A stretch of DNA of 32,000 nucleotides from Dehalococcoidia bacterium (GCA_050248655.1 JBFWRY010000002.1:236811-268810); one strand, 5' to 3'; positions 977 to 20,976 are shown, numbered from the stretch's first letter. Program-made: numbers and translations. The notes: generated by a model from the letters alone, not told the origin.

Positions 977-2350
977 TCAAATGCTTGTCTTGTCTGCCTC
1001 GGCGCTGCCTTCTGCTCCCGTCTCCGCCGTGCCAGGCCCTCGTATCGCCCTCAGCGTGGCGCCCCCCGGTAGTCTTTCGTTTCCGGCCTTTGGAATGCCG
1101 ATCCGTTGCGACAAGTAGATGCCTCGGTGTCCGCTCACTATGTACGCCACGAAACAGGCGACGGCGAGATATGGCGCCGCCGCGCCTCCGAACAATTCGA
1201 TTCCCATCACAGTACAGGCGAGTGGGGTGTTCGCCGCCGCGCCAAACACGGCCACAAAGCCCATCCCCGCGAACAGGTCGGCGGGCGCATCCATCAGCGC
1301 CGCCAGCCGGTTTCCGAGCGTCGCGCCAATGAAGAACAGCGGAGTCACCTCGCCTCCCTTGAACCCGCTCCCCAGCGCCAGCGCAGTGAATGCGATCTTC
1401 CACCACCACGAAAATGGGTCCGCGCCGCCGGGCTCGAAGCTCGACACGATCGTCGTCGCCCCTGCGTCCGGCGACGTCACCCCGAGCCCCAGGTAGTCTC
1501 GGGTCCCCAACAGGTACACAAGGGCGATGGTCAACGCTCCGCCAACGGCCGGACGGAAGAGCGCGCTCCCGATCGCGCGGCGAAACACCCGGCCCAGACC
1601 GTGGGTCAGCTCCGTGAAGAACAGCGCCGCCAGGCCAAAGGCGACACCTCCGAGTGCCGCCTTGGCCATGAGCAGCGCATCGAACGGCAGTCGGCCGTCG
1701 CGGGCAACGATCGATACCTGGTACACCGTGTGATGCGCGTCCCACGCTGCGGCCGTGTAATCCGCGACCAGTGCCGCATACAGCACGGGGATCAGCGCCC
1801 CGTACTCCATTCGTCCGATCGCGAGCACTTCCATCGCGAACACGGCGCCGGCCAGCGGAGTCCCGAACACCGCCCCGAACCCGGCAGCAACCCCTGCCAT
1901 CAGCAACGTACGCAGCTCCGGCGGCCCGAGGCGCAAGACACGGTTTGACGCGCTCGCAATCCCGCCCCCCATCTGCACCGCTGTCCCTTCTCGGCCCACC
2001 GATGCTCCGAAAAGGTGCGCGAGCACCGTCGTGCCGAAGATGAGCGGCGTGATCCGTGCCGGAATACCGCCGCCCGGCTGATGGATTTCATCCACGATCA
2101 GGTTGTTGCCGCCCTCTACCGCCCGGCCATATCGCTGGTACGCCGCAGCGCTCACGACCCCGGCGACAGGCAGCATGAAGAGGAGCCAGCCGTGCTCCCA
2201 CCGCGTCTCCGTCGCCCATTCGAGTGACCAGAGAAACGCTGCCGACGCCGTACCGATGGCTGCCGCGACGGGCGTCAGGATGAACAGCCAGCGCACCATG
2301 TAACGGGCCACGGCCGCCTGCTCCCAGAGACTCGTCCGTAGTGCCGTCAT
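977..2350 (-). CDS. eriC: CLC-F type fluoride/proton antiporter (CLC family, fluoride-specific clade)
   Basis: 457-aa polytopic membrane ORF. It has GGNNLI in place of the canonical GSGIP and GREGT in place of GKEGP, the Asn/Thr pair I recall for the CLC-F clade. A fluoride riboswitch lies directly upstream. ATG at 2350. Confidence 0.9.
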   Translation of the reverse strand: MTALRTSLWEQAAVARYMVRWLFILTPVAAAIGTASAAFLWSLEWATETRWEHGWLLFMLPVAGVVSAAAYQRYGRAVEGGNNLIVDEIHQPGGGIPARITPLIFGTTVLAHLFGASVGREGTAVQMGGGIASASNRVLRLGPPELRTLLMAGVAAGFGAVFGTPLAGAVFAMEVLAIGRMEYGALIPVLYAALVADYTAAAWDAHHTVYQVSIVARDGRLPFDALLMAKAALGGVAFGLAALFFTELTHGLGRVFRRAIGSALFRPAVGGALTIALVYLLGTRDYLGLGVTSPDAGATTIVSSFEPGGADPFSWWWKIAFTALALGSGFKGGEVTPLFFIGATLGNRLAALMDAPADLFAGMGFVAVFGAAANTPLACTVMGIELFGGAAAPYLAVACFVAYIVSGHRGIYLSQRIGIPKAGNERLPGGATLRAIRGPGTAETGAEGSAEADKTSI

Positions 2351-10465: not shown

Positions 10466-11302
10466 CTACACCTTCGGCGCCAGGCCCGTCCGCTGCCCGC
10501 GCAGGCCCCGCAGCGCAAGGTCGACAGGGCCCAGCCGACGTACACCCTCGGGCCCGCGCGGCCCACCCTGGTTGCGCATCATTATGACATAATCGCCGAA
10601 GCCGGCTTCCATCCCGCTCGCATAGCCCATCAGGTCCTGCGCCTTGTTGATGGAAAGCTTGGTCATCCGGACGATCATCCGGTCGTTTTCGGCGACCCGC
10701 AGCGCGTAGTTGACGGTTTCCCGCTCCAGGTCCTCCGGCGCGCAGACGCGGTTGACGAACCCCGCTTCAACGGCCTCCGCGGCGGTCAGGAACCGGCTCT
10801 CGAAACACAGCTCCTTCGCTTTCTTCGGGGTGATGTCCCACGGCACCGAGGGGTACTCCAGCAGTGCCGGCAGGAACACTGCGCGGTCGCTGGCGAACAC
10901 GAGGTCCATCGACGCCGCGATCATCCAGCCTCCAAAGATGCAGAACCCATCCACCATCGCGATCGTTGGTTTTGGCATGTTCCGCCACTTCAGGGTGATG
11001 TCGAGGTTGTAGTGCTTGAATGCGTCATAGAACTCGATACCCGACTCCGGGAGTCCACGCGCTTCGCGGTCTGCAACGCTCTCCGGCGTGCCCAGGTCGT
11101 GCCCGGACGAAAAGTTGCCCCCGGCGCCTTCGAGGATCACCACCGCCACCTCGCGGTCGGCCATTGCCCGCTCAAGCGCCGCATCCAATTCGTCCAGCAG
11201 GTGGTAGCTCTGTGCGTTGCGATACTTCGGGCGGTTCAGCGTGATCCGCGCGATCGCGCCTTCAGTCCGGTACAGGACGACATCCTTCTCTCGTTCAACC
11301 AT
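10466..11302 (-). CDS. Enoyl-CoA hydratase/isomerase (crotonase) family protein
   Basis: ARITLNRPKYRNAQS..VVILEGAGGNFSSGHDL..KPTIAMVDGFCIFGG. ATG 11302 follows GGGAG. The listed ORF extends further upstream. Confidence 0.88.
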   Translation of the reverse strand: MVEREKDVVLYRTEGAIARITLNRPKYRNAQSYHLLDELDAALERAMADREVAVVILEGAGGNFSSGHDLGTPESVADREARGLPESGIEFYDAFKHYNLDITLKWRNMPKPTIAMVDGFCIFGGWMIAASMDLVFASDRAVFLPALLEYPSVPWDITPKKAKELCFESRFLTAAEAVEAGFVNRVCAPEDLERETVNYALRVAENDRMIVRMTKLSINKAQDLMGYASGMEAGFGDYVIMMRNQGGPRGPEGVRRLGPVDLALRGLRGQRTGLAPKV

Positions 11303-11413
11303 CGGTGCTGCATCTCCCTTCGGTTCCCCCACTCTACGGAGGGCAGCTCCCCGGAGCACGTCTGCGCAGCGTCGGCACGCGAACGGTCGTCGTCCCTCGC
11401 GTTCTCCTCTACG

Positions 11414-12247
11414 ATGCCGCAACACCGCACCAGGGAGCTTCCACCAGTGGATTTCGAGGACATCATCTACGAGGTCGATTCCGACGGGGTCGCCACGCTC
11501 ACCATCAACCGCCCCGAGCGCATGAACGCGCTTCGCCCCCAGACGACCGCCGAAATCCGCCAGGCGATTGCCCTCGCCCGCGATGACGATGCTGTCCGCT
11601 GCCTCCTCGTGACGGGCGCCGGCCGCGCCTTCTGTGCCGGCGACGACTTCCAGGCCATCTTCCTCGCCGACAACCGGTCCAACAGCCAGTTCAACCGGCA
11701 GGTACGCCGCATCAAGGAGGGGGAGGTCTCCCTCGACGACCTCTTCGCCCTCGAGAAGCCCACCGTCGCGGCGGTCAATGGCGCCGCCGTCGGCTACGGC
11801 ATGGACCTCGCCCTCTATTGTGACATCCGCTTCGCCTCGGAAAGCGCCCGCATGGGCTGGTTCTTCGTCCGTCGCGGCGTCCTCGGCACCGTTGGCGGCA
11901 CGTTCATCCTCCGCCAGCTGGTCGGCCTTTCAAAGGCCCTCGAACTGACGATGACCGGCGACATGGTGCCCGCCGAGGAGGCGCTCAAGATCGGCCTCGT
12001 CTCCAAAGTCGTGCCCGATGACCAGCTCCTCGCCGAGGCCCGCGCCATGGCCCGCAAGCTCGCCGGCGGCCCGCCCCTCGCCCAGCGCGCCGTCAAGCGC
12101 GCCATGCACAAGGGATTCCAGATGGATTGGAAGACCCTCGGCGAATACCAGCAGGCCCTCGGCGATGTCCTCTGGCAAACAGAAGACCACCGCGAAGGCG
12201 TCGATTCGTTCGTCGAAAAACGCGAGCCGTCGTACAAGGGGCGCTAG
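11414..12247 (+). CDS. Enoyl-CoA hydratase/isomerase (crotonase) family protein
   Basis: This is the C-terminal 278 codons of the artefactual 691-aa ORF 10172..12247. Motifs: ATLTINRPERMNAL..LLVTGAGRAFCAGDD..KPTVAAVNGAAVGYGMDLAL..EGVDSFVEKREPSYKG. An alternative start, GTG 11447, has GGGAG 9 nt upstream. Confidence 0.88.
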   Translation: MPQHRTRELPPVDFEDIIYEVDSDGVATLTINRPERMNALRPQTTAEIRQAIALARDDDAVRCLLVTGAGRAFCAGDDFQAIFLADNRSNSQFNRQVRRIKEGEVSLDDLFALEKPTVAAVNGAAVGYGMDLALYCDIRFASESARMGWFFVRRGVLGTVGGTFILRQLVGLSKALELTMTGDMVPAEEALKIGLVSKVVPDDQLLAEARAMARKLAGGPPLAQRAVKRAMHKGFQMDWKTLGEYQQALGDVLWQTEDHREGVDSFVEKREPSYKGR

Positions 12248-12397: not shown

Positions 12398-12450
12398 AAG
12401 AGGGTGGTGGAGCTGGAGGGATTCGAACCCTCTACCTCAACACTGCCAGT
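12398..12450. repeat. Direct repeat copy 1: orphan 3' half of tRNA-Ala (nt 31-76 plus 7 nt downstream); putative distal att site
   Basis: AAGAGGGTGGTGGAGCTGGAGGGATTCGAACCCTCTACCTCAACACTGCCAGT is identical over 53/53 nt to 19866-19918. The adjacent sequence (12451 onward) does not encode a tRNA 5' half. Confidence 0.9.
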
Positions 12451-12622
12451 CTTACGCATGGCGTTCGCGGTCGTCCGCTCAGGTTCGCCAAGTTGACAGT
12501 AAGTCCTTCGCCGGTTGCCGCTGGCTGATGTCATCCGTGACAATTAATGTCAGCATTGATGTCGGATTCGAATGACCTCTGGGAACCAAGGCGGCAGCCA
12601 GTCGTGATCAGGCGAAATCGAT

Positions 12623-13372
12623 TTAGATCGTCTGGTTGCAGAGTGCAACCTGATGCCGTGTGTATCGCTCGAGGTTCGCAACCTGGGCCGTTGTGAGTCG
12701 GTCGCAGGCCCAGCCCCAGTGGATTGACACCCACTGCCCTGGCGACACATCGTCGACGAACCCTTTGCCGTCGATCCACCGCTGGACTGTCTCCGACTGT
12801 GGGGCGGCCAACTCCAGCGTTCCTTCGCGCAGCACGAGCGGCTGGACGCTCACCACCAGGTTCGCGCCGTCCACTGCGGTGACCTGGCCCCAACGAATGC
12901 GGCACTGCTCCATGGTGTGGAACAGGTGACTCGTGACCGCGCCAGACTTCATGAACCCGGCCCGAGGGTAGATCTCGAAGACATGAAAGCTGTGATGGGG
13001 CCGCGCCCCGGCCGGGATCTTGGTGACCAGCCAGTTCCAGTCGCCCGGCTTCGTTCGCGCCTTGAAACGTGTCTTCATCGAATCGAACAGCAGCCCCATG
13101 TCCACGTTGTCCAGGAGGCTGTTTCCGACCCAGTAGGCATCCACCACTCGCGCATCGAGCGGGTCCGCGATGTTGTTTGCTCGCGCGATCAACTGAAGGT
13201 ACGGGTACGCACCCTCGAACTGTCTCTCCAGTTGCAGCAGTCCCCCATCGACCACGCCGCTGGTCGTGTACTGGAAGAGAGCAAGGTCGTCGTCTCCTCC
13301 GCAGAAGCCGAGTTCGTTCGGACGGAACGCGTAGCGCGCGAAAAGGAGGGGGCCGGGGACCGTCCCGTTCAC
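12623..13372 (-). CDS. Conserved hypothetical protein, last gene of the hydrogenase operon (possibly the DUF6390-type family; C-terminal part HypC/HupF-like)
   Basis: GTG 13372 overlaps the EamA stop (GTGA). The C-terminal segment GQVTAVDGANLVVSVQPL..GQWVSIHWGWACDRLT resembles the HypC-type beta-barrel pattern (..V.VHVGFA..). The family name is from memory and unverified. Confidence 0.6.
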   Translation of the reverse strand: MNGTVPGPLLFARYAFRPNELGFCGGDDDLALFQYTTSGVVDGGLLQLERQFEGAYPYLQLIARANNIADPLDARVVDAYWVGNSLLDNVDMGLLFDSMKTRFKARTKPGDWNWLVTKIPAGARPHHSFHVFEIYPRAGFMKSGAVTSHLFHTMEQCRIRWGQVTAVDGANLVVSVQPLVLREGTLELAAPQSETVQRWIDGKGFVDDVSPGQWVSIHWGWACDRLTTAQVANLERYTRHQVALCNQTI

Positions 13373-14322
13373 GCCCCGCCTCCCGCCGCTTCGAGGGCGC
13401 CGGCTTGGCCGCGGTCCCTCCCTGCCCGCCAGGCAAGCACCGCCGTCAGCGCCACACCGACCATCAGGAGTGAATAACCGGCCAGGCGTTCGGCGTCCGG
13501 CATCGGACGCCCGTCCCAAATCTGCAGGGCTGCTGTTAGGGGTGCGGCCACGGTCAGCACGCATGTCACAGCGGTTGCTGGCGCAAGCTTGAGCGCCCCG
13601 TACCAGGTGCTTACGTACGCGACGAGAAACGCTGCGGTGAGTAGCAGCCACCGCCATTGCTCGGCATCGAACCCAAAGAGATCGCTTGCCTTGCCGGTCA
13701 CGGCGAGGTAGCAGAAAAGGACCAGGGCGCCGCCACCCATCCGCGCTGCCACCCCAATCGAAGCCGAAACGCCCCGCAGCACCTGCCGCGCAATGACCGT
13801 CTCGACTGCCCAGAGGAGCGTCGCGGCCAGGATCATGAGTTCGCCACTCCCGAACGATGCCTCCGCCGGCCGTCCGATGAGCACCTGTGCCAGCAGCAGA
13901 ACGCCGATCGCCAGCAGATGGCCCGGGCCGAGGCGTTCACCCAACAGGGGGACTGCCAGCAGCGCCACCCAGATGAACAGCGTCTTTTGGATAAACGCAG
14001 CGTTCGCCGCCGTCGCCTGGCTGAGCCCTTCGAAGAACAGGATGAACGGGATACTGCCGCCGACGACGGCGATCGTTCCCAGCTTCAACAGTGTGGCGCG
14101 CGGTAGTGCCCGCGCCTCCTGCATCGTCGCCGGTCGCAGCAGCGCTGCCACGATCACGACGCCGACCAGACTGTTCTTTGCTGCGGTGAACACAGCGCTG
14201 TCGTCGAAGTGGCGAACAGCATGGCCGTTCAGGAAGATCGAGACACCGCTGATGAGCGCTGCCGTGAGGGCGAGGCTGATACCCAGGCGAGGCGTCGCGG
14301 CCACGGGGCCCGATCGGTTCAT
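13369..14322 (-). CDS. EamA/DMT-superfamily permease
   Basis: 317 aa with ~10 predicted TM helices in two EamA-like halves. ATG 14322 follows GGAGGG and overlaps the hypC stop (ATGA). Confidence 0.8.
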   Translation of the reverse strand: MNRSGPVAATPRLGISLALTAALISGVSIFLNGHAVRHFDDSAVFTAAKNSLVGVVIVAALLRPATMQEARALPRATLLKLGTIAVVGGSIPFILFFEGLSQATAANAAFIQKTLFIWVALLAVPLLGERLGPGHLLAIGVLLLAQVLIGRPAEASFGSGELMILAATLLWAVETVIARQVLRGVSASIGVAARMGGGALVLFCYLAVTGKASDLFGFDAEQWRWLLLTAAFLVAYVSTWYGALKLAPATAVTCVLTVAAPLTAALQIWDGRPMPDAERLAGYSLLMVGVALTAVLAWRAGRDRGQAGALEAAGGGA

Positions 14323-14597
14323 TTGAGTCCCTCCGTTGGTTGGTTCGTCGGTTCGTTCGTCAGGTCTTCCCAGGCCCCGAGCAGCATCGCCCCGAACGTG
14401 TTCCGCTCGGTCGCTTCCTCCTCGGTAACCCGCTCGATGACGGCCCCGCCCGCTACCAGCACGCGGTCTCCGCAGGCAAGGTCTTCGACATAAGAAAGGC
14501 ACTGCATCGTCGGTGCGTATGGAAAATCGACGGTCGCCATCACCAGTCCGGCGCTCTCGTGCAGCGCTACGACCGTCCCGGCAGTCCCAAGGCACAT
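14319..14597 (-). CDS. hypC: Hydrogenase maturation chaperone HypC/HupF family
   Basis: Starts MCLGTAG.. (the essential N-terminal Cys2). It is 92 aa and sits between hypA and the rest of the operon. Its ATG shares one nt with the hypA stop (TGATG). Confidence 0.85.
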   Translation of the reverse strand: MCLGTAGTVVALHESAGLVMATVDFPYAPTMQCLSYVEDLACGDRVLVAGGAVIERVTEEEATERNTFGAMLLGAWEDLTNEPTNQPTEGLK

Positions 14598-14923
14598 CAG
14601 GACACCTTCCCGTCGACCACTTCCAGTTCGACCGATTCCTCCCGCGCGGGCAGCGGCGCCCCACCGCAACCTGGGCATTCCACGTCGCCGGTGTCGGCTG
14701 TGTATCCGGCCGCGCAGACCGAGCAGGCGAGCTCCATCGGCATGTGCACGATCTGCAGGTCCAGGGCCATGCCAGCTCCGCCGAGGTGCGCTAGCAGCGC
14801 TGCGTCGAACTCCTCCGGCCGGGCATGGTGACCTCCCGAGACGAGTAGCCGAAGCTGCCGCCCGGCGAGGCCCTGCTCCGCCACCGTCGCGGCGATCGCC
14901 GCAGCGAGGCCCGCTTCATGCAT
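14597..14923 (-). CDS. hypA: Hydrogenase nickel-insertion protein HypA
   Basis: N-terminal MHE nickel motif (MHEAGLAAAI..) and a zinc site CSVC-x12-CPGC; 108 aa. Confidence 0.88.
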   Translation of the reverse strand: MHEAGLAAAIAATVAEQGLAGRQLRLLVSGGHHARPEEFDAALLAHLGGAGMALDLQIVHMPMELACSVCAAGYTADTGDVECPGCGGAPLPAREESVELEVVDGKVS

Positions 14924-15428
14924 GCAGCATCGCCTCCCGTAATGCCCAGGCTTCGTCTCGTGCCGCCGCAAGCGCCCCCGGCATGGCCGCGCTGACGACC
15001 GCGCTCAGGTCGAGGCAATAGTCGATGGTCTGCGGCTGTATTCCCACCAGTGCCACCGCTTGCGGCAGTGCGCCCGTCAGTCGTGCGACGGCTAGCAGGT
15101 CGCCCGCGCCCACCTGGTGCGGCGACATCCGCGTCCCGAACGCCGCCGTCAGATCATCGCCGCGGAAGATCCTGACGGTCCCGGGTTTGGCTCCCACGTT
15201 GAGCGCATCGAGTAAGAGCAGCGCACCGGCGTCGGCCACCAGTGGCAGCAACTCGATCCCCAGCGTCCCGCCGTCCACCACCATTGCGCCCCCAGGGAGC
15301 AGCGCAGGTTCCAACTCCAGCGCCTCTGCGAGGTGGATTCCGACACCCTCGTCCTGCAGAAGAACGTTACCAACCCCGAGGATGAGCAGCGGTCGCTCAA
15401 GGGCGATGGGGACAGGCGCGACTGACAC
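14916..15428 (-). CDS. hupD: [NiFe]-hydrogenase maturation endopeptidase (HyaD/HupD family)
   Basis: LLILGVGNVLLQDEGVGIH..DGGT.G..LL....LLLLDA..G..PG matches the HyaD family pattern. GTG 15428 lies 2 nt after the large-subunit stop. Confidence 0.85.
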   Translation of the reverse strand: MSVAPVPIALERPLLILGVGNVLLQDEGVGIHLAEALELEPALLPGGAMVVDGGTLGIELLPLVADAGALLLLDALNVGAKPGTVRIFRGDDLTAAFGTRMSPHQVGAGDLLAVARLTGALPQAVALVGIQPQTIDYCLDLSAVVSAAMPGALAAARDEAWALREAMLHA

Positions 15429-15430
15429 CG

Positions 15431-17131
15431 TTACAGCACCCGTACCTGGACACCAGACCCTCTGGCCGGGTCGTACACGTGCACCGCGCACGCCATGCAT
15501 GGGTCGAATGAGTGCACCGTCCGCAGGATCTCAACAGGTTGTTCCGGGTCAGCGACCGGGGTCCCGACGAGGGCCTCCTCCCATGCCCCTCGGCGGCCCC
15601 TTTCGTCCCGGGGAGATCCGTTCCACGTGCTGGGCACTACCAATTGGTAGTTCGCCACCTTCTGGTCCTTGATGACAACCCAATGACCCAGTGCTCCCCG
15701 CGGCGCCTCCTCGAATCCCCAGCCCTGGGCATCCGTCGGCCACGACGCAGGCTCCCACTTCTCCGTCGCCGCCACCTCCAGCACCCCGGTGTCCATGTTG
15801 CTTGCGAGCTGATCGACCCATCCGCCCAGACGGTTGGCCAGCACTTGTGTCTCCAGCGCACGCGCTGCAATGCGTCCCAGTGTGCTGAAGAGGGCGTCTT
15901 TGGTGACGCCCAGCTTGGAAATCAGGCCGTCGACCGCCGATACGAACTCCTGCCGTCCCGACGCGTACGCCACCAGCACTCGTGCGAGGGGGCCGACCTC
16001 GTAGGGCTCATCCTCGTATCGTGGTGCCTTCAGCCAGCTGTATTTCTCGTACCCCTCGAGCGTCTCATAGGGTGGGGGTGGCCCGGCGTACGTCGGCTTC
16101 GTTTCTCCTTCCCACGGATGCAATGCACGGTCCGAGGCGTACTCGTACCACGAATGCGCGACCGTCTCGGCAATCTGCGCCTGATCCACCGGGAGCACCT
16201 TCGAAAGGTCCCGCCCTACGATCCGGCCGGCCGGGAACACATAGCTGCTCTCCGCGCCGGTGGCGTCGGGGAAGTCGCCGTACACCAGGTAGTTGCCAAT
16301 ACCCTTCCCGATGCTCGCCCAGTCCTTGTACTTTCCGGCGATGTACGTGACGTCCGGAATGTACACCTGGTCGACGAACTCCTTCGCGCCAGTGATCTGC
16401 TGCCGGATGGTAGCCAGGCTTGCCCGGTTCAACCCGGTCGGCGAATCGTTTGCCATGCGCAGCGCCATCCCCCCCACAACATACGTCTGAGGGTGTGGGT
16501 TCTTGCCTCCAAGGATGGCGTGCACCTTCACGATACCCCGTTGCCACTCCAGCGCCTCGAGGTAGTGCGCCACGAACAGCAGGTTCTCTTCCGGGGTCAG
16601 GGTGTACGCCGGGTGGCCCCAGTAGCCGTTGGCAAACGGCCCGAGCTGCCCTGAACTCACGAACGTCTTGAGTCGCTCAAGGACGGTTGTGAAGTAGCTC
16701 GCGGAGTTGTTCTTCCATGGGCTGATCGATTGTTGGAGCGTCGCGACCCTGGCCGGGTCGGCCGTCGTCGCCGAGACCACATCCACCCAGTCCAACGCGT
16801 GCAGGTGATAGAAGTGCACCACGTGGTCATGGACGAACTGGGTCGCCCCGATCACGTTTCGCACCAGCCGCGCGTTTGCCGGGATGGTGATCCCGAGCGC
16901 GTCCTCGACTGCTCGCACTGAGGCGAGCGCATGCACAGTGGTGCACACGCCGCAGGCCCGCTGTGCGAACATCCACGCATCCCGCGGGTCCCGTCCCTGG
17001 ATGATGTTCTCCAGCCCCCGGAACATGGTGCCCGTGCTCCACGCATCCTTCACCGTGCCGTCGGACACTTCGACTTCGATGCGGAGGTGGCCCTCAATGC
17101 GCGTGATCGGGTCAATCGCGATGCGAGTCAA
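15431..17131 (-). CDS. hupL: [NiFe]-hydrogenase large (catalytic) subunit, group 1-like uptake type
   Basis: IDPITRIEGH; N-terminal Ni-Fe ligands RACGVCTTVH; C-terminal DPCMACAVH followed by a 15-aa cleavable extension. TTG start overlaps the hupS stop (TTGA), with GGAGGA upstream. Confidence 0.95.
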   Translation of the reverse strand: MTRIAIDPITRIEGHLRIEVEVSDGTVKDAWSTGTMFRGLENIIQGRDPRDAWMFAQRACGVCTTVHALASVRAVEDALGITIPANARLVRNVIGATQFVHDHVVHFYHLHALDWVDVVSATTADPARVATLQQSISPWKNNSASYFTTVLERLKTFVSSGQLGPFANGYWGHPAYTLTPEENLLFVAHYLEALEWQRGIVKVHAILGGKNPHPQTYVVGGMALRMANDSPTGLNRASLATIRQQITGAKEFVDQVYIPDVTYIAGKYKDWASIGKGIGNYLVYGDFPDATGAESSYVFPAGRIVGRDLSKVLPVDQAQIAETVAHSWYEYASDRALHPWEGETKPTYAGPPPPYETLEGYEKYSWLKAPRYEDEPYEVGPLARVLVAYASGRQEFVSAVDGLISKLGVTKDALFSTLGRIAARALETQVLANRLGGWVDQLASNMDTGVLEVAATEKWEPASWPTDAQGWGFEEAPRGALGHWVVIKDQKVANYQLVVPSTWNGSPRDERGRRGAWEEALVGTPVADPEQPVEILRTVHSFDPCMACAVHVYDPARGSGVQVRVL

Positions 17132-18354
17132 CGTTCCTCCTCCGTCCCTTCATCCGGGCTTGCGTCATCGGCGTTCTGCCCTGCGTCATGGCCCCGTCGC
17201 GACCGTACTGCGATGAACGCACCCGCCCCGCCCGCGGCCGCCACGGCGACCGCCCCGAGCCCTATAAGCAGGGCGCCGTTGTCGTCGTCGCCGCTCGAAG
17301 GACCGGAACCTGGCGTGGCGGTGCTGCCTGGCGGCGCTGGCGTACGCGTTTCGGGAACGGGTGTGCGGTAGTCCACCGGCGTCGGCGTTGGCACCACCTG
17401 CGGTCGCCCGCTGGCGTAGAAAGGCGACATCGCATCCCAGAACTGCGGCATCGTGCAGCCTACACACCCGTGCCCCGAGGAAACCGGCCAGCTCGTCCCG
17501 CCGTTGAACTTCAGGGTCGAACAGTTCGCGTCCGTTGATGGCCCCTTGCAGCCCATTTCGTACAGGCACCAGCCCTTGCGGTGGCCTTCGTCCCCCCACG
17601 CCTTCACGAATTCCTTGGCTCGATAGTGGGGCAGGCTCTCGCAGGTCGCATGTACCTGGTCGCCATAGGCGAACAGCGGTCGATTGAGACTGTCTACCTC
17701 GGGCCACTTCTGCAGCGCCAGGTACTGGATCACCAGGGCCGTCAGGTTGTCCGGGTTCATCGGGCAACCCGGGAGGTTGATCAGCCGGATCGTCGGGTCG
17801 TTCAGCCACGTGCTCACGCCCACCGCGCCCGTCAGTCCACCACGAGCCGCGGGGAGGCCCCCGTCAAGGGCGCAGGTCCCGACCGCGACCGTGGCCAGCG
17901 CCCCCTTCACGATCTCCCTTGCAACCTCAGCAAACGCACGGCCGCCGATCGTGCAATACACCCCGCCGTCCGCCAGTGGGATGGCCCCCTCGATCACTGC
18001 AACATATCCGTTCGGAAACTCGCGCAGGATGTCTTCAATCGACTTCTCAGTGCGCTTTCCAGAGGGAGCCATCAACAGGTGATGGTGGTCCAACGAGAGC
18101 GTCTGCAGGATAAGTTCCGAGATCGTCGGCTGCTCCGCTCTCAGCAGCGCCTCCGAGTTTCCCGCGCAGTCCTGCCCTTCCAGCCAGATAACCGGGATGC
18201 GGGGTGAAGACTGGAGACCTCTTGCAATCTCGAAGGCGAACCGTGGCGGAAGGGCCAGGGCGGCGGCCATCGTCGCGCAGTACTTCAAGAAGCGCCGTCG
18301 CGAAACGCCGCGCTGGGCGAGTACCTCTGCGAGGTCGATCCGGCCGGCATCCAT
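17128..18354 (-). CDS. hupS: [NiFe]-hydrogenase small subunit, Tat-exported, with C-terminal membrane anchor
   Basis: Twin-arginine signal SRRRFLKYC. FeS ligands GTCA, GCP, HATC, GWCLYEMGCKGP, NCS and GHGCVGC align with Desulfovibrio-type small subunits. Pro/Thr linker followed by TM helix GALLIGLGAVAVAAAGGAGAFIAV. ATG 18354 follows GGAGGAG; the listed ORF starts at 18441. Confidence 0.93.
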   Translation of the reverse strand: MDAGRIDLAEVLAQRGVSRRRFLKYCATMAAALALPPRFAFEIARGLQSSPRIPVIWLEGQDCAGNSEALLRAEQPTISELILQTLSLDHHHLLMAPSGKRTEKSIEDILREFPNGYVAVIEGAIPLADGGVYCTIGGRAFAEVAREIVKGALATVAVGTCALDGGLPAARGGLTGAVGVSTWLNDPTIRLINLPGCPMNPDNLTALVIQYLALQKWPEVDSLNRPLFAYGDQVHATCESLPHYRAKEFVKAWGDEGHRKGWCLYEMGCKGPSTDANCSTLKFNGGTSWPVSSGHGCVGCTMPQFWDAMSPFYASGRPQVVPTPTPVDYRTPVPETRTPAPPGSTATPGSGPSSGDDDNGALLIGLGAVAVAAAGGAGAFIAVRSRRGHDAGQNADDASPDEGTEEER

Positions 18355-19013
18355 AGCGTCGACTCCTCCGCTGTCAGCTGTGGCGTTTGCAAGCACGGCG
18401 CGCCTTTCGCTGACTCTGGTCGACACTACGCCGTCAGACACGGGCCTGCACCGTCAGCTAGGCGGAAGCGTTTGGTCCGAACGGGCCAAAGTCCACGCGA
18501 TGTCCCGATCGTGGCGATCCGTTCCTGGGGTCGGCCGTCCGCAGCTGGTCTATCTGGACGCCGTGCTCCATGCCGTGCTGGGTTACGTTCTGCAGGACGC
18601 TGAGTGGCCGCCACCGGTCGCGGGGACCGGCTCGATCTCCGCATCTGTGGCCGCCAGCTGGATCGACATCGCCGCCTGCTTCTCGACCCGGGCGTGGGGT
18701 GGGCGGTCAGCGAGACGGTTGCCGGGAACAAGGTCGCCACCTGCTCCGCGTGAGCTGTTGCCAGTCGTTCCTATGAGCGTCAGCGGTCCCAAGGAAACAT
18801 GAGGGGGAATGAAAAACAAAGGCCAAGAATGAAACAACTGCTACTCAGCGATCCCGTCATCTCCTCTCATGGTCGGGCCACACCTTGGAGAGCACACGGA
18901 ATTCGTCCTGACCGCGCCCCGGCCCGTTTGGCAGGGTTGCAGCCGTTTCCAGCATCCTCGAGAGTGTCGGTGGGTTCACTCGCGCGTGCGCCAGCCGGCG
19001 CTCTGGAGTCGGA

Positions 19014-19712
19014 ATGCTGTCACGAATCTCGCCGCGGCAACTGCGCCGGCTTGCAGTTACCCTCCTCGTGCTGACGCTCGCCTACAACGTGGCAGAGGGC
19101 GCCATCGCCATCGTCGCCGGACTCCGGGCGGACAGCATCGTCCTCCTGACATTCGGCGCCGACAGCTACCTCGAAGTCCTTGCCGCCTCCGCCGTCCTCT
19201 GGCGCCTCTCTTTTCGCGACGAAGAGAGCGGGGAACGGGCCGAACGGAAGGCCATGCGCCTGATTGGCGCCAGCTTCCTGCTGCTCGCCGCAGCGGTCGC
19301 CGTCCAGGCCGCCCTTGCCTTCGCGGGGGACGGTCAGGCCGAGTCGTCCCCGCTCGGCATCGGGTTGCTTGTCGCGTCGCTCGTCCTGATGCCCCTGCTC
19401 TCCTTCGCCAAGCTCTGGACAGCTGCCCGGCTGCGCCTCCCGGTCATCGCAGCAGAAGCCCGCGAGACGATCGCCTGTTCCTACCTCAGCCTCACGGCAC
19501 TTGCTGGCCTCGCTGCCACGGCCGCGATCGGAGCGGCCTGGGTCGACCCATTCGCGGCGCTGCTGCTCATCCCGTGGCTCGTCCGCGAAGGCCTGGAGGG
19601 CGTCCGCGGTGACGCCTGCTTCGACGGGCTTGGCGTGTGCTTCTGCCGGCAGTGCCTCTGGGGCGTTCGAAACTGCCCGCCGAACGATGCTTGCGTCCCG
19701 CGTTGCTGCTGA
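19014..19712 (+). CDS. Cation-diffusion-facilitator-like membrane protein (TM domain only) with Cys-rich C-terminal tail
   Basis: N-terminal pattern LAYNVAEGAIAIVAGLRADSIVLLTFGADSYLEVLAA..LWRL is typical of short 'cation transporter' CDF-type proteins. 5-6 TM helices and no His residue. The tail CFDGLGVCFCRQCLWGVRNCPPNDACVPRCC has 8 Cys in 31 aa. GGAG lies 5 nt before the ATG. Confidence 0.6.
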   Translation: MLSRISPRQLRRLAVTLLVLTLAYNVAEGAIAIVAGLRADSIVLLTFGADSYLEVLAASAVLWRLSFRDEESGERAERKAMRLIGASFLLLAAAVAVQAALAFAGDGQAESSPLGIGLLVASLVLMPLLSFAKLWTAARLRLPVIAAEARETIACSYLSLTALAGLAATAAIGAAWVDPFAALLLIPWLVREGLEGVRGDACFDGLGVCFCRQCLWGVRNCPPNDACVPRCC

Positions 19713-19865
19713 TCCCCGGGCGGCCGCGGCACCTTGCATGGCCCCGCGGCCACAGGCACTGAACATCCGATTGCATCCGCGCCGCGCACAGAACAGTCCC
19801 GCGTCCGCCCCGGTTCGTGGCTGACTATCCCGGAAGTACGGCGCGGTTTTCGAAGATATCGAGAG

Positions 19866-19918
19866 AAGAGGGTGGTGGAGCTGGAGGGATTCGAACCCTC
19901 TACCTCAACACTGCCAGT
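19866..19918. repeat. Direct repeat copy 2 (tRNA-proximal att site); overlaps the 3' part of the intact tRNA-Ala
   Basis: Identical 53-mer to 12398-12450. Positions 19873-19918 are nt 31-76 of the tRNA. Confidence 0.9.
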
Positions 19919-19948
19919 GTTGCGCTCTCCCAAGTGAGCTACAGCCCC
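19873..19948 (-). tRNA. tRNA-Ala (anticodon GGC), CCA encoded
   Basis: Minus strand is GGGGCTGTAGCTCACTTGGGAGAGCGCAACACTGGCAGTGTTGAGGTAGAGGGTTCGAATCCCTCCAGCTCCACCA, which folds as a 76-nt cloverleaf. Anticodon loop is CTGGCAG, the G3:U70 Ala identity pair is present, and the T-loop is GGTTCGAATCC. Confidence 0.95.
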
Positions 19949-20007: not shown

Positions 20008-20976
20008 CTACTTCCGCGTCCGCGGGTCCAGCGCGTCCCGCAACCCGTCCCCAAGGAACGTGAAGCACAGCATCAGGATCGCCACCATAACCGCCGGCCA
20101 GATCAACTCGATCGAGTTCGTCTGGATGTTGTCCTGGCCCGACCGGATCAGCGACCCGAGGCTTGCGTCCGGCGGCGGAACACCCAGTCCGATGAAGCTC
20201 AGTGCAGCCTCCGCGAAGATCGCCAGCGGGATGCCGAACGTCGTCGCCACGATGATCGCGCTCAGTGTGTTCGGGAGCATGTGGTACCGCACCACGCGCC
20301 ACGGGCTCGCACCGGTCGCCTGCGCCGCCAGCACATAGTCCTGCTGTTTAATCTGCAACATTTGCCCGCGCACCAGTCGCGCCACCGTTACCCACGCCAC
20401 CAGCCCGATGGCAATTACGGTCACGAGGAACACGCCGCCGAAACCCGGGATCTGCGGGTTCCCCTCACCGATGATCGGCCAGCCGCGCCCAAACAGGATC
20501 TGGCGCATGAGGATGATCGCCAGCAGGTCGGGGAACGCGTACGCCAGGTCCGTGAACCACATCAACACCCCGTCGCCACGCTTGCCGCCAAGTGCCGCGC
20601 CCATGCCTACGGAGATTCCGATCACCAGCACGAACACTTGCGTGATCAACCCGAGCTTCAGCGAAAACAGCGTGCCCTGCATCAGTCGCGACCACAGGTC
20701 CCGCCCGAGCCCATCGGTGCCAAGCCAGTAATTGCCGCTCGGCGCGGCCCGGATGTTCTGGTAGTTCTGGATCGCCGGGTCATTGTTCTGGACGAACGTC
20801 CCAAGCTCGGAAAGCACGGCAAGGGCCGCAATCAGCAGCAACAGCAGGCCGCTGGCCAGCGCCAGCCGGTTCCGCGCCAACCGCTGAAACGCCTGGCCCC
20901 AGAGGCCGCGCTCTTTCGTGTGCAGGGTTTGCTTGGTGAAGTCATAGGGCTCCGCGGTTGCCTGTTTCGCTGCCAC
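20008..20976 (-). CDS. ABC transporter permease (peptide/nickel type, OppC/DppC/NikC-like)
   Basis: WLGTDGLGRDLWSRL motif and the EAA-loop region AAQATGASPWRVVRYHMLPN. GTG start follows AGGAGAGG. Confidence 0.88.
   Translation of the reverse strand: MAAKQATAEPYDFTKQTLHTKERGLWGQAFQRLARNRLALASGLLLLLIAALAVLSELGTFVQNNDPAIQNYQNIRAAPSGNYWLGTDGLGRDLWSRLMQGTLFSLKLGLITQVFVLVIGISVGMGAALGGKRGDGVLMWFTDLAYAFPDLLAIILMRQILFGRGWPIIGEGNPQIPGFGGVFLVTVIAIGLVAWVTVARLVRGQMLQIKQQDYVLAAQATGASPWRVVRYHMLPNTLSAIIVATTFGIPLAIFAEAALSFIGLGVPPPDASLGSLIRSGQDNIQTNSIELIWPAVMVAILMLCFTFLGDGLRDALDPRTRK

Follow-up and report, generated by a model that had tools for sequence, protein, structure and literature searches.

The stretch of DNA considered here, 32,000 nucleotides from a Dehalococcoidia bacterium (GCA_050248655.1 JBFWRY010000002.1:236811-268810), which as a whole we shall call the window, carries a [NiFe]-hydrogenase operon enclosed between two perfect copies of a 53-mer that belongs to the 3′ half of a tRNA-Ala(GGC) gene. 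We consider it probable, and hold this with good confidence, that the DNA between these repeats is an island of the kind that integrases insert into tRNA genes, present today as a remodelled, non-autonomous derivative.

Anatomy of the attachment site in tRNA-Ala(GGC)

The window contains exactly two copies of the 53-mer, AAGAGGGTGGTGGAGCTGGAGGGATTCGAACCCTCTACCTCAACACTGCCAGT, one at 12398-12450 and the other at 19866-19918; they are perfect, lie 7468 bp apart on the + strand, and have different bases adjoining them on the outside. There was no third copy in the window at up to three mismatches, and matches were found in 0 of 100 shuffles. An earlier note on this DNA, which had described the pair in the same terms (an exact-match search bears it out), foresaw that the 53-mer might prove to be a dispersed genomic repeat; this is not so, either within the window or at nine related loci. 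The right-hand, tRNA-proximal copy, core of attL (exact match, with the junction read), consists of positions 31-76 of an intact tRNA-Ala(GGC) gene together with 7 nt past the encoded CCA. This gene, the target of integration (19873..19948, minus strand), is the single tRNA of the window; ARAGORN and Rfam (tRNA, 64.3 bits) agree on it, and with the earlier note on what the copy contains. The left-hand, distal copy, core of attR, is an exact match and an orphan tRNA 3′ fragment, without an adjoining 5′ half, as had also been noticed. Similarity to the tRNA goes on for only a few nucleotides on the island side of it (12451..12457), where five of seven match tRNA positions 24-30 (GCGTAAG against GCGCAAC), and ends there. 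This short extension presumably derives from attP.

Along the strand of the tRNA one meets the tRNA, a first repeat, 7,415 bp of DNA, the second repeat and finally the old downstream sequence. This is the canonical topology left by an element that carries a copy of a tRNA 3′ end and recombines inside that copy, and it displays the features by which tRNA islands are recognized, namely insertion on the 3′ side, direct repetition of the tRNA 3′ segment and conservation of an intact tRNA. The junction sequences that existed before integration can be reconstructed as GCGCAACACTGGCAGTGTTGAGGTAGAGGGTTCGAATCCCTCCAGCTCCACCACCCTCTTTGAATCTCTGGATTGACG for attB and GCCATGCGTAAGACTGGCAGTGTTGAGGTAGAGGGTTCGAATCCCTCCAGCTCCACCACCCTCTTCTCTCGATATCTTCG for attP, and the latter holds no arm-type repeats above those of shuffled sequences. 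The perfect identity of the distal copy, which is non-functional, suggests that the configuration is fairly young, or else that it has been kept uniform by conversion or by renewed recombination.

A relative shows the same site without the island. On a metagenome contig labelled Tepidiformaceae (L025; ENA ERZ24842531), which shares 88-91% nucleotide identity with the window across the right flank, the tRNA runs to ...CCACCACCCTCTT and is directly followed by TGAATCTGGGATTTGACG..., a sequence that in the window lies past the distal repeat. Placed side by side, L025 passes from the tRNA and its ...CCACCACCCTCTT to TGAATCTGGGATTTGACGATAATGCGGCGGCCC, and the window, past the distal repeat, from ...CCCTCTT to TGAATCTCTGGATTGACGATCATGCAGACGGCCC. 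L025 is a precise empty site (attB): the tRNA meets the left flank of the window exactly at the repeat boundary. The chromosomal flank past the distal repeat holds an enoyl-CoA hydratase gene (11447..12247, + strand; Pfam ECH_1, NCBIfam), whose intergenic sequence on the tRNA side is, in L025, continuous with the tRNA. The sequence outward of the distal repeat, TGAATCTCTGG..., is what follows the tRNA not only in L025 but also in the more distant L005, L006 and L008, where the motif TGAATCTG stands a few bases after the tRNA, so that the distal flank of the window can be recognized as the ancestral sequence downstream of the tRNA. In L003 (84% nucleotide identity), the hydrogenase is likewise missing at this site. 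The search for an empty site that the earlier note had suggested has therefore succeeded, with a tRNA joined to the left flank at the repeat boundary, and together with the topology it supports the integrase-type insertion into a tRNA gene which that note had proposed.

On its other side the locus is well conserved. An OppC-type ABC permease gene (20008..20976, minus strand; Pfam BPD_transp_1 and OppC_N) forms the chromosomal flank beside the tRNA, and with an OppC probe the succession of OppC and tRNA-Ala(GGC) was recovered in nine related genomes (Tepidiformaceae, Thermoflexaceae and allies), each with a single copy of the tRNA 3′ segment; the synteny is that of L003-L011 and L025. No second tRNA fragment was seen at eight related tRNA-Ala(GGC) loci. 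What comes after the tRNA is less stable. In L003-L010 the next gene encodes a short-chain dehydrogenase, a MiaB-like radical SAM protein, a CoA-transferase, a hydrolase, a zinc-dependent alcohol dehydrogenase or a 3-hydroxyacyl-CoA dehydrogenase and, since it varies in this way across the relatives examined, the site is a rearrangement hot spot. From the tRNA site up to the first gene that the window and L003 have in common, the former carries its enoyl-CoA hydratase (11447-12247) and the latter a short-chain dehydrogenase (11273-12130), similar in length but unrelated; the hot spot has thus undergone a second replacement, this one beyond the repeats. In L008 a gap of 800 bp after the tRNA is followed by three open reading frames (ORFs) without Pfam match and with odd GC content at their codon positions, possibly another island.

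A hydrogenase cassette in a mosaic backbone

The cargo of the island, as the earlier note had seen and as Pfam agrees, is a hydrogenase operon and one transporter-like gene. The operon is a cassette of seven minus-strand genes. It begins with the small subunit, HupS (17128..18354; Pfam Oxidored_q6 and NiFe_hyd_SSU_C; TIGR00391, E 2e-109; alignment to Protein Data Bank (PDB) entries), which carries the twin-arginine translocation (Tat) signal SRRRFLKYC and ends in a Pro/Thr linker followed by a transmembrane helix of its own, used as an anchor. The large subunit, HupL, comes next (15431..17131; 566 aa; Pfam NiFeSe_Hases, E 3e-229), with the motifs RACGVC and DPCMACAVH and a C-terminal extension of 15 aa; its best match in PDB is 3MYR_B (E 1e-213), then come Hyd-5 and Hyd-1, and these closest solved large subunits would place the enzyme among the group 1 uptake hydrogenases. 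The operon continues with a HyaD/HybD-type hydrogenase maturation endopeptidase (14916..15428; Pfam HycI; TIGR00072, E 2e-39), a HypA-like nickel metallochaperone with an MHE N-terminus and a CxxC...CxxC pattern (14597..14923; Pfam HypA, E 7e-7), a HypC/HupF chaperone that starts with MCLG (14319..14597; Pfam HupF_HypC; TIGR00074), an EamA/DMT-family membrane transporter (13369..14322; Pfam EamA, E 7.5e-26) and, as the last gene, a DUF6390 protein (12623..13372; Pfam DUF6390, E 3.7e-80), for which we found no literature. The last two genes hold the same positions in two other loci, L022 and L023; translationally coupled (12623-14322), they are fixed operon members at three distant loci.

The likely function in the host, as far as it can be predicted, is H2 uptake by an exported, membrane-anchored enzyme. 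A gene for cytochrome b or Isp was found neither in the cassette of the window nor in L022 or L023. The maturation genes of the island are limited to those for HypA, HypC and the protease, and the predicted H2 uptake would depend on HypB/D/E/F encoded elsewhere in the genome. A peculiarity of the small subunit lies in the CxGC motif of the proximal cluster, the second Cys of which is an Asn: the sequence (residues ~61-68) is QDCAGN, against ECTGC in standard group 1 enzymes, and the remaining Fe-S ligands mostly align. Since QDCAGN is kept in the homologs of L022 and L023, it has to be taken as a feature of the clade and not as an error.

The large subunit has its two closest homologs in L022 and L023 (80% and 77% amino acid identity), and both loci have the same seven-gene cassette in unrelated contexts, with no flanking integrase and no repeat of note; by this comparison the cassette is a portable unit. 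An enoyl-CoA hydratase gene comes after DUF6390 in L022 and might have been thought to reflect an ancestral linkage across the distal repeat, an idea that was dropped, the two hydratases being 36% identical and their position a coincidence. A further contig, L036 (run SRR28748390), has a copy of the EamA and DUF6390 genes that is 96% identical to that of the window and diverges directly past the DUF6390 stop codon (L036 1220-1270 against window 12560-12622). It follows that the edge of the cassette lies at ~12622, that the 172-bp distal arm belongs to the backbone of the island, and that a near-identical cassette exists in another context. In L037 (JGI 3300044998) a small subunit (378-1643) has at least 90% identity in protein and ~79% in DNA, and its positions 1-45, ~335 bp upstream of the hydrogenase, resemble the T-arm, acceptor and CCA 3′ end of a tRNA (..GCAGGTTCGATTCCTGCCGGGGGTACCA), without an Rfam call. 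Another copy of the cassette may therefore also stand just downstream of a tRNA.

The remainder of the island tells a different part of its history. The distal arm (12451..12622), outside the cassette, is non-coding DNA of 55% GC in which no ORF matches a family; it holds, between the end of the operon and the distal repeat, an AT-rich imperfect palindrome (ATCCGTGACAATTAATGTCAGCATTGATGTCGGAT, 12528-12562) that could be a terminator, an operator or an arm site for a recombinase. The tRNA-proximal arm (19713..19865) is also non-coding, without ORF family matches, and shows patchy homology, broken by indels, to the equivalent 116 bp of a Logan contig, L035. Beside this arm stands a backbone gene on the + strand (19014..19712) for a short membrane protein of 232 aa that resembles the cation diffusion facilitator (CDF) family and is named 'cobalt/cation transporter' (weak Pfam Cation_efflux, E 1e-3); many of its 325 homologs are annotated as divalent cation or cobalt transporters. 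The homologs were considered as possible cargo of mobile elements, an idea that did not hold, their neighbourhoods being those of metal homeostasis.

It is in L035 and in a second Logan contig, L038 (runs SRR13871840/42), that the backbone can be followed in the absence of hydrogenase. Both encode a variant of the CDF-like protein that is at least 90% identical in amino acids, the gene having 84% nucleotide identity and the homology beginning 79 bp upstream of the start codon. The order is there an intact CoA-transferase gene, the CDF gene, the patchily homologous spacer and the tRNA-Ala 3′ end, and from the same runs comes a contig with OppC that has 87% identity to the window. The CoA-transferase of L035 is a two-domain protein of family III with at least 797 codons, its ORF beginning at the edge of the contig (CoA_transf_3, E 5e-150). 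In the window what is left of it is a 3′-end remnant (..GPHLGEHTEFVL..; 18842..18911, + strand) that was detected by tblastn and by blastn against L035: residues 754-776 of the 797-aa protein align with 18842-18910 at 69.6% over 23 aa (E 6e-4), and 29 nt match at 86%, collinear and 24 bp before the continuous CDF homology. From this collinear remnant and L035 we can understand the cassette, with 487 bp upstream of it, as having replaced most of the CoA-transferase gene and the distal content. Since the gene that it abuts is truncated here, and intact in the hydrogenase-free variant, the cassette is the newcomer.

The 487 bp in question (18355..18841), a spacer upstream of the hydrogenase operon, have no six-frame family match and are not conserved upstream of HupS in L022, L023 and L037. 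A long ORF at 18197-18802 (+ strand), which runs through this spacer, was compared with 1.8 billion representatives and set aside, there being only two marginal matches, both to its N-terminal part (residues 47-107), the part that starts within HupS, on the strand opposite to that gene, and enters the spacer. A GC periodicity of three bases (0.50/0.70-0.78/0.76) at 18460-18670 suggests that this DNA codes for protein or did so recently; in the frame that fits best, there is no family match and no homolog among the same 1.8 billion representatives.

Genes for mobility were not found. Neither the ORFs of the island nor its spacer segments, translated in six frames, match integrase, excisionase, transposase or transfer families in Pfam and PHROG, in keeping with the earlier note, which had recognized no integrase. 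None of the island's non-coding stretches (172, 659 and 153 bp) offers room for a full recombinase gene. A scan for promoters and terminators gave nothing above chance. The flanks in the window encode housekeeping functions only. Elsewhere in the window, a fluoride riboswitch (Rfam RF01734, 47 bits) occupies 2416-2497 on the minus strand, directly upstream of a gene for a CLC-type channel (977-2350, minus strand), which from its sequence looks like the usual arrangement for a fluoride-exporting CLC.

Probable formation of the island and competing explanations

The succession of events may be pictured as follows. Site-specific recombination, of the type carried out by tyrosine integrases, would have brought the island of 7,415 bp into the 3′ part of tRNA-Ala(GGC), the incoming element having its own copy of this part, which began at the anticodon loop and ended 7 nt after the CCA. 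A crossover within this identity block, in or near the anticodon loop, would have rebuilt an intact tRNA on the proximal side and moved the resident 3′ half, and the sequence that had followed it, to the distal end. We infer these steps from the anatomy of the site, the empty site itself being there to be seen. The tRNA-proximal backbone, made of the arm, the CDF gene and the last ~70 bp of the CoA-transferase gene, is common to the window and to a hydrogenase-free variant of a related species, and a block of ~6.2 kb (the ~5.7-kb cassette and 487 bp of DNA upstream of it) would have taken the place of most of the CoA-transferase gene and of the distal content. The arrival of the cassette would be a later, illegitimate replacement inside the island, and this replacement, or an earlier event, would have removed the recombinase. 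The island could at present move only through an integrase encoded elsewhere, acting on att sites that are still perfect, or through homologous recombination between or around the repeats; mobilization in trans appears possible from the intact att cores and from the variants with different cargo. The earlier note had seen in the ~7.4 kb an acquired island, either decayed or of the type of a cis-mobilizable element (CIME). Insertion as an island has stood up to examination; what entered was, however, not simply the whole hydrogenase module, the structure being a mosaic: an island backbone was there first, and the cassette took the place of most of its CoA-transferase gene. This mosaic evidence shifts the choice toward a decayed or remodelled island.

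It might still be argued that the island never needed an integrase of its own, and that as an active CIME-like element it is still cycled by the tRNA-Ala-specific integrase of some other element of its genome or community, which would keep the att cores perfect. The 53 bp are indeed perfect even in the non-functional distal copy, presence and absence alternate exactly at the att boundaries, one proximal module goes with two island variants of different cargo, and mobility genes are wholly absent. Yet no integrase lies by the tRNA in eight relatives or on viral contigs, and in the truncated CoA-transferase one sees an illegitimate rearrangement of the interior, such as decay typically brings; we judge continued cycling of this sort unlikely. 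The hydrogenase could, at the other extreme, be ancestral at this place and have been deleted by the relatives, the tRNA fragment being the old scar of a vanished and unrelated element. The island has the composition of its flanks, the region past the tRNA is rearranged in every relative examined, and the CDF divergence from L035 (84%) is about that of the flanks (85-87%), all of which would suit such a history. It is hard to reconcile, however, with an empty site in L025 that coincides with the repeat boundary to the base, with an ancestral downstream motif that sits past the distal repeat, with a cassette abutting a gene that is truncated here and intact where hydrogenase is lacking, and with nearest cassette homologs found in unrelated contexts. 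Already disfavoured, an ancestral hydrogenase seems to us very improbable.

There is also the question of whether the arrangement exists at all, as a MAG (metagenome-assembled genome) can be mis-joined over a repeated tRNA segment, the data being short-read metagenome data throughout and contigs often breaking in this tRNA. This we find scarcely credible. An independent NCBI contig (L001, JBFXFW010000047) crosses both junctions with 99.98% identity; the identical large subunit is found on contigs of MAGs labelled Dehalococcoidia bacterium, with the same gene order in three MAG protein sets; and a single read is longer than the 53-bp repeat. L002, a Logan contig of 7,475 bp, consists of the island interior with exactly 30 nt of each repeat, which is what is expected from an assembler working with k=31 at a true 53-bp repeat. 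The island is thus present in all the available assemblies of the species, three MAGs and Logan contigs. Logan contigs that end in the tRNA had been considered as a sign of additional repeats or of polymorphism; in two different species the break falls at tRNA position 46, most likely owing to k-mers that related tRNAs have in common in metagenomes, and such ends are uninformative. Neither an excised-circle junction nor an empty site was seen for the species itself, its Logan contigs being uninformative in this respect since they break for k-mer reasons.

Against a remodelled integrase-type island in tRNA-Ala(GGC), several points have to be set. The empty site rests on one metagenome contig of 8 kb (L025), at ~9x coverage, which ends 33 bp past the junction, and every sequence used comes from short-read MAGs or metagenome contigs. 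L035 stops inside the tRNA, and its linkage to the OppC-side tRNA-Ala(GGC) of the same organism (L026) is a deduction. Pfam missed the 23-aa remnant of the CoA-transferase, and a remnant of an integrase as short as this would escape it too. The cognate integrase was not found in the window, beside tRNA-Ala(GGC) in eight related genomes, or on viral contigs, where neither a 50-mer nor a 46-mer of the tRNA segment had a match; a metagenome scan for the same segment was set aside, its sole contig being an L003-like tRNA end. Finally, the comparison of GC content and k-mers advised by the earlier note does not mark the island as foreign: its GC content is 65.5% against 64.8%, and its tetranucleotide usage is inside the range of flank windows of the same size, 11% of which are as far or farther. 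This unremarkable composition fits a donor of similar composition.

Kinship with known elements and biological meaning

Islands and prophages that target tRNA genes are the natural terms of comparison. They share with the present case insertion downstream of an intact tRNA, a repeat from tRNA position 31 past the CCA, a 3′ half displaced to the opposite end and, in a relative, a precise empty site. Williams, in Nucleic Acids Res in 2002, reportedly sorted the tyrosine integrases that target tRNAs into sublocation classes, including one with an identity block from the anticodon loop to the 3′ end. In contrast to such elements, the island described here has no integrase and no atypical composition, and it is very small (7.4 kb, eight genes).

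The CIMEs of Streptococcus, catalogued in ICEberg 2.0 (PMC6323972) and reviewed together with integrative and mobilizable elements, IMEs (PMC5704250), come close in another way. Like them, the island is flanked by att sites and lacks genes for recombination and transfer, and it has related variants with one common end and differing cargo. Unlike them, it has no cognate IME, integrative and conjugative element (ICE) or integrase that could be found, it shows no accretion (tandem) structure, and its host is a MAG of the Chloroflexota (Tepidiformaceae-like) and not a Firmicute. Judged from its sequence, the block answers to the descriptive definition of a CIME, the defining trait of which would be mobilization by the integrase of a related element.

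The closest published case that involves a hydrogenase is the MIC island of Methanococcus maripaludis, which spans 12 kb, carries the [NiFe]-hydrogenase FohAB with Tat and maturation genes between direct repeats of 221 bp, and is lost without selection (PMC12667266). In both cases a small island lies between direct repeats and has as its main cargo a secreted [NiFe]-hydrogenase together with the protease that serves it; neither is reported to have an integrase, and both vary in their presence among strains. The MIC repeats, however, come from ycaO and are ascribed to microhomology-mediated insertion and homologous recombination (PMC12667266), whereas the repeats found here are a tRNA 3′ half, a signature of site-specific recombination; the host is here bacterial, and the enzyme is of the membrane-anchored uptake type.

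Within the class Dehalococcoidia, one may think of the islands of Dehalococcoides, which are likewise small, have a defined site of integration and bring with them one operon for a respiratory enzyme. Many of them integrate at ssrA. Their cargo is a reductive dehalogenase, while it is here a hydrogenase, and there is here no recombinase, whereas the vinyl-chloride reductase islands carry their own (PMC2764846). As for the enzyme, it shares with group 1 [NiFe] hydrogenases such as the membrane-bound hydrogenase of Allochromatium vinosum (3MYR), Hyd-5 of Salmonella and Hyd-1 of E. coli the motifs of the large subunit, the Tat signal, the anchor of the small subunit and a HyaD-type protease, and it departs from them in the lack of a cytochrome b or Isp partner, in the Asn of the proximal motif, and in having EamA and DUF6390 fixed in the operon. 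Hydrogenases spread horizontally, and genes for them are known on mobile elements in Cupriavidus, but the vehicle is rarely caught.

Integrase-less islands in tRNA genes are already known as a kind; the present example, from a soil member of the Chloroflexota, is resolved well enough to serve as a model. One can see, in uncultured organisms of this phylum, where the transferred unit begins and ends, how the site looks when empty, and what a variant with alternative cargo contains, which provides a concrete and testable case for the gain of a single respiratory trait. It also illustrates that an island without integrase can result from the replacement of cargo in its interior, and not from simple decay. 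The definition of a conserved cassette of seven genes has consequences for biochemistry as well: the uncharacterised EamA and DUF6390 proteins and the unusual proximal-cluster motif merit investigation. Going further, one might conjecture, and we hold this to be distinctly unlikely, that tRNA-Ala(GGC) hosts in Tepidiformaceae-like Chloroflexota a whole family of non-autonomous, att-bounded carriers, with exchangeable cargo, in one species a CoA-transferase and in another a complete H2-uptake module, which an integrase encoded elsewhere would move. If this were true, the oxidation of H2 would spread among soil Chloroflexota as a minimal plug-in unit.

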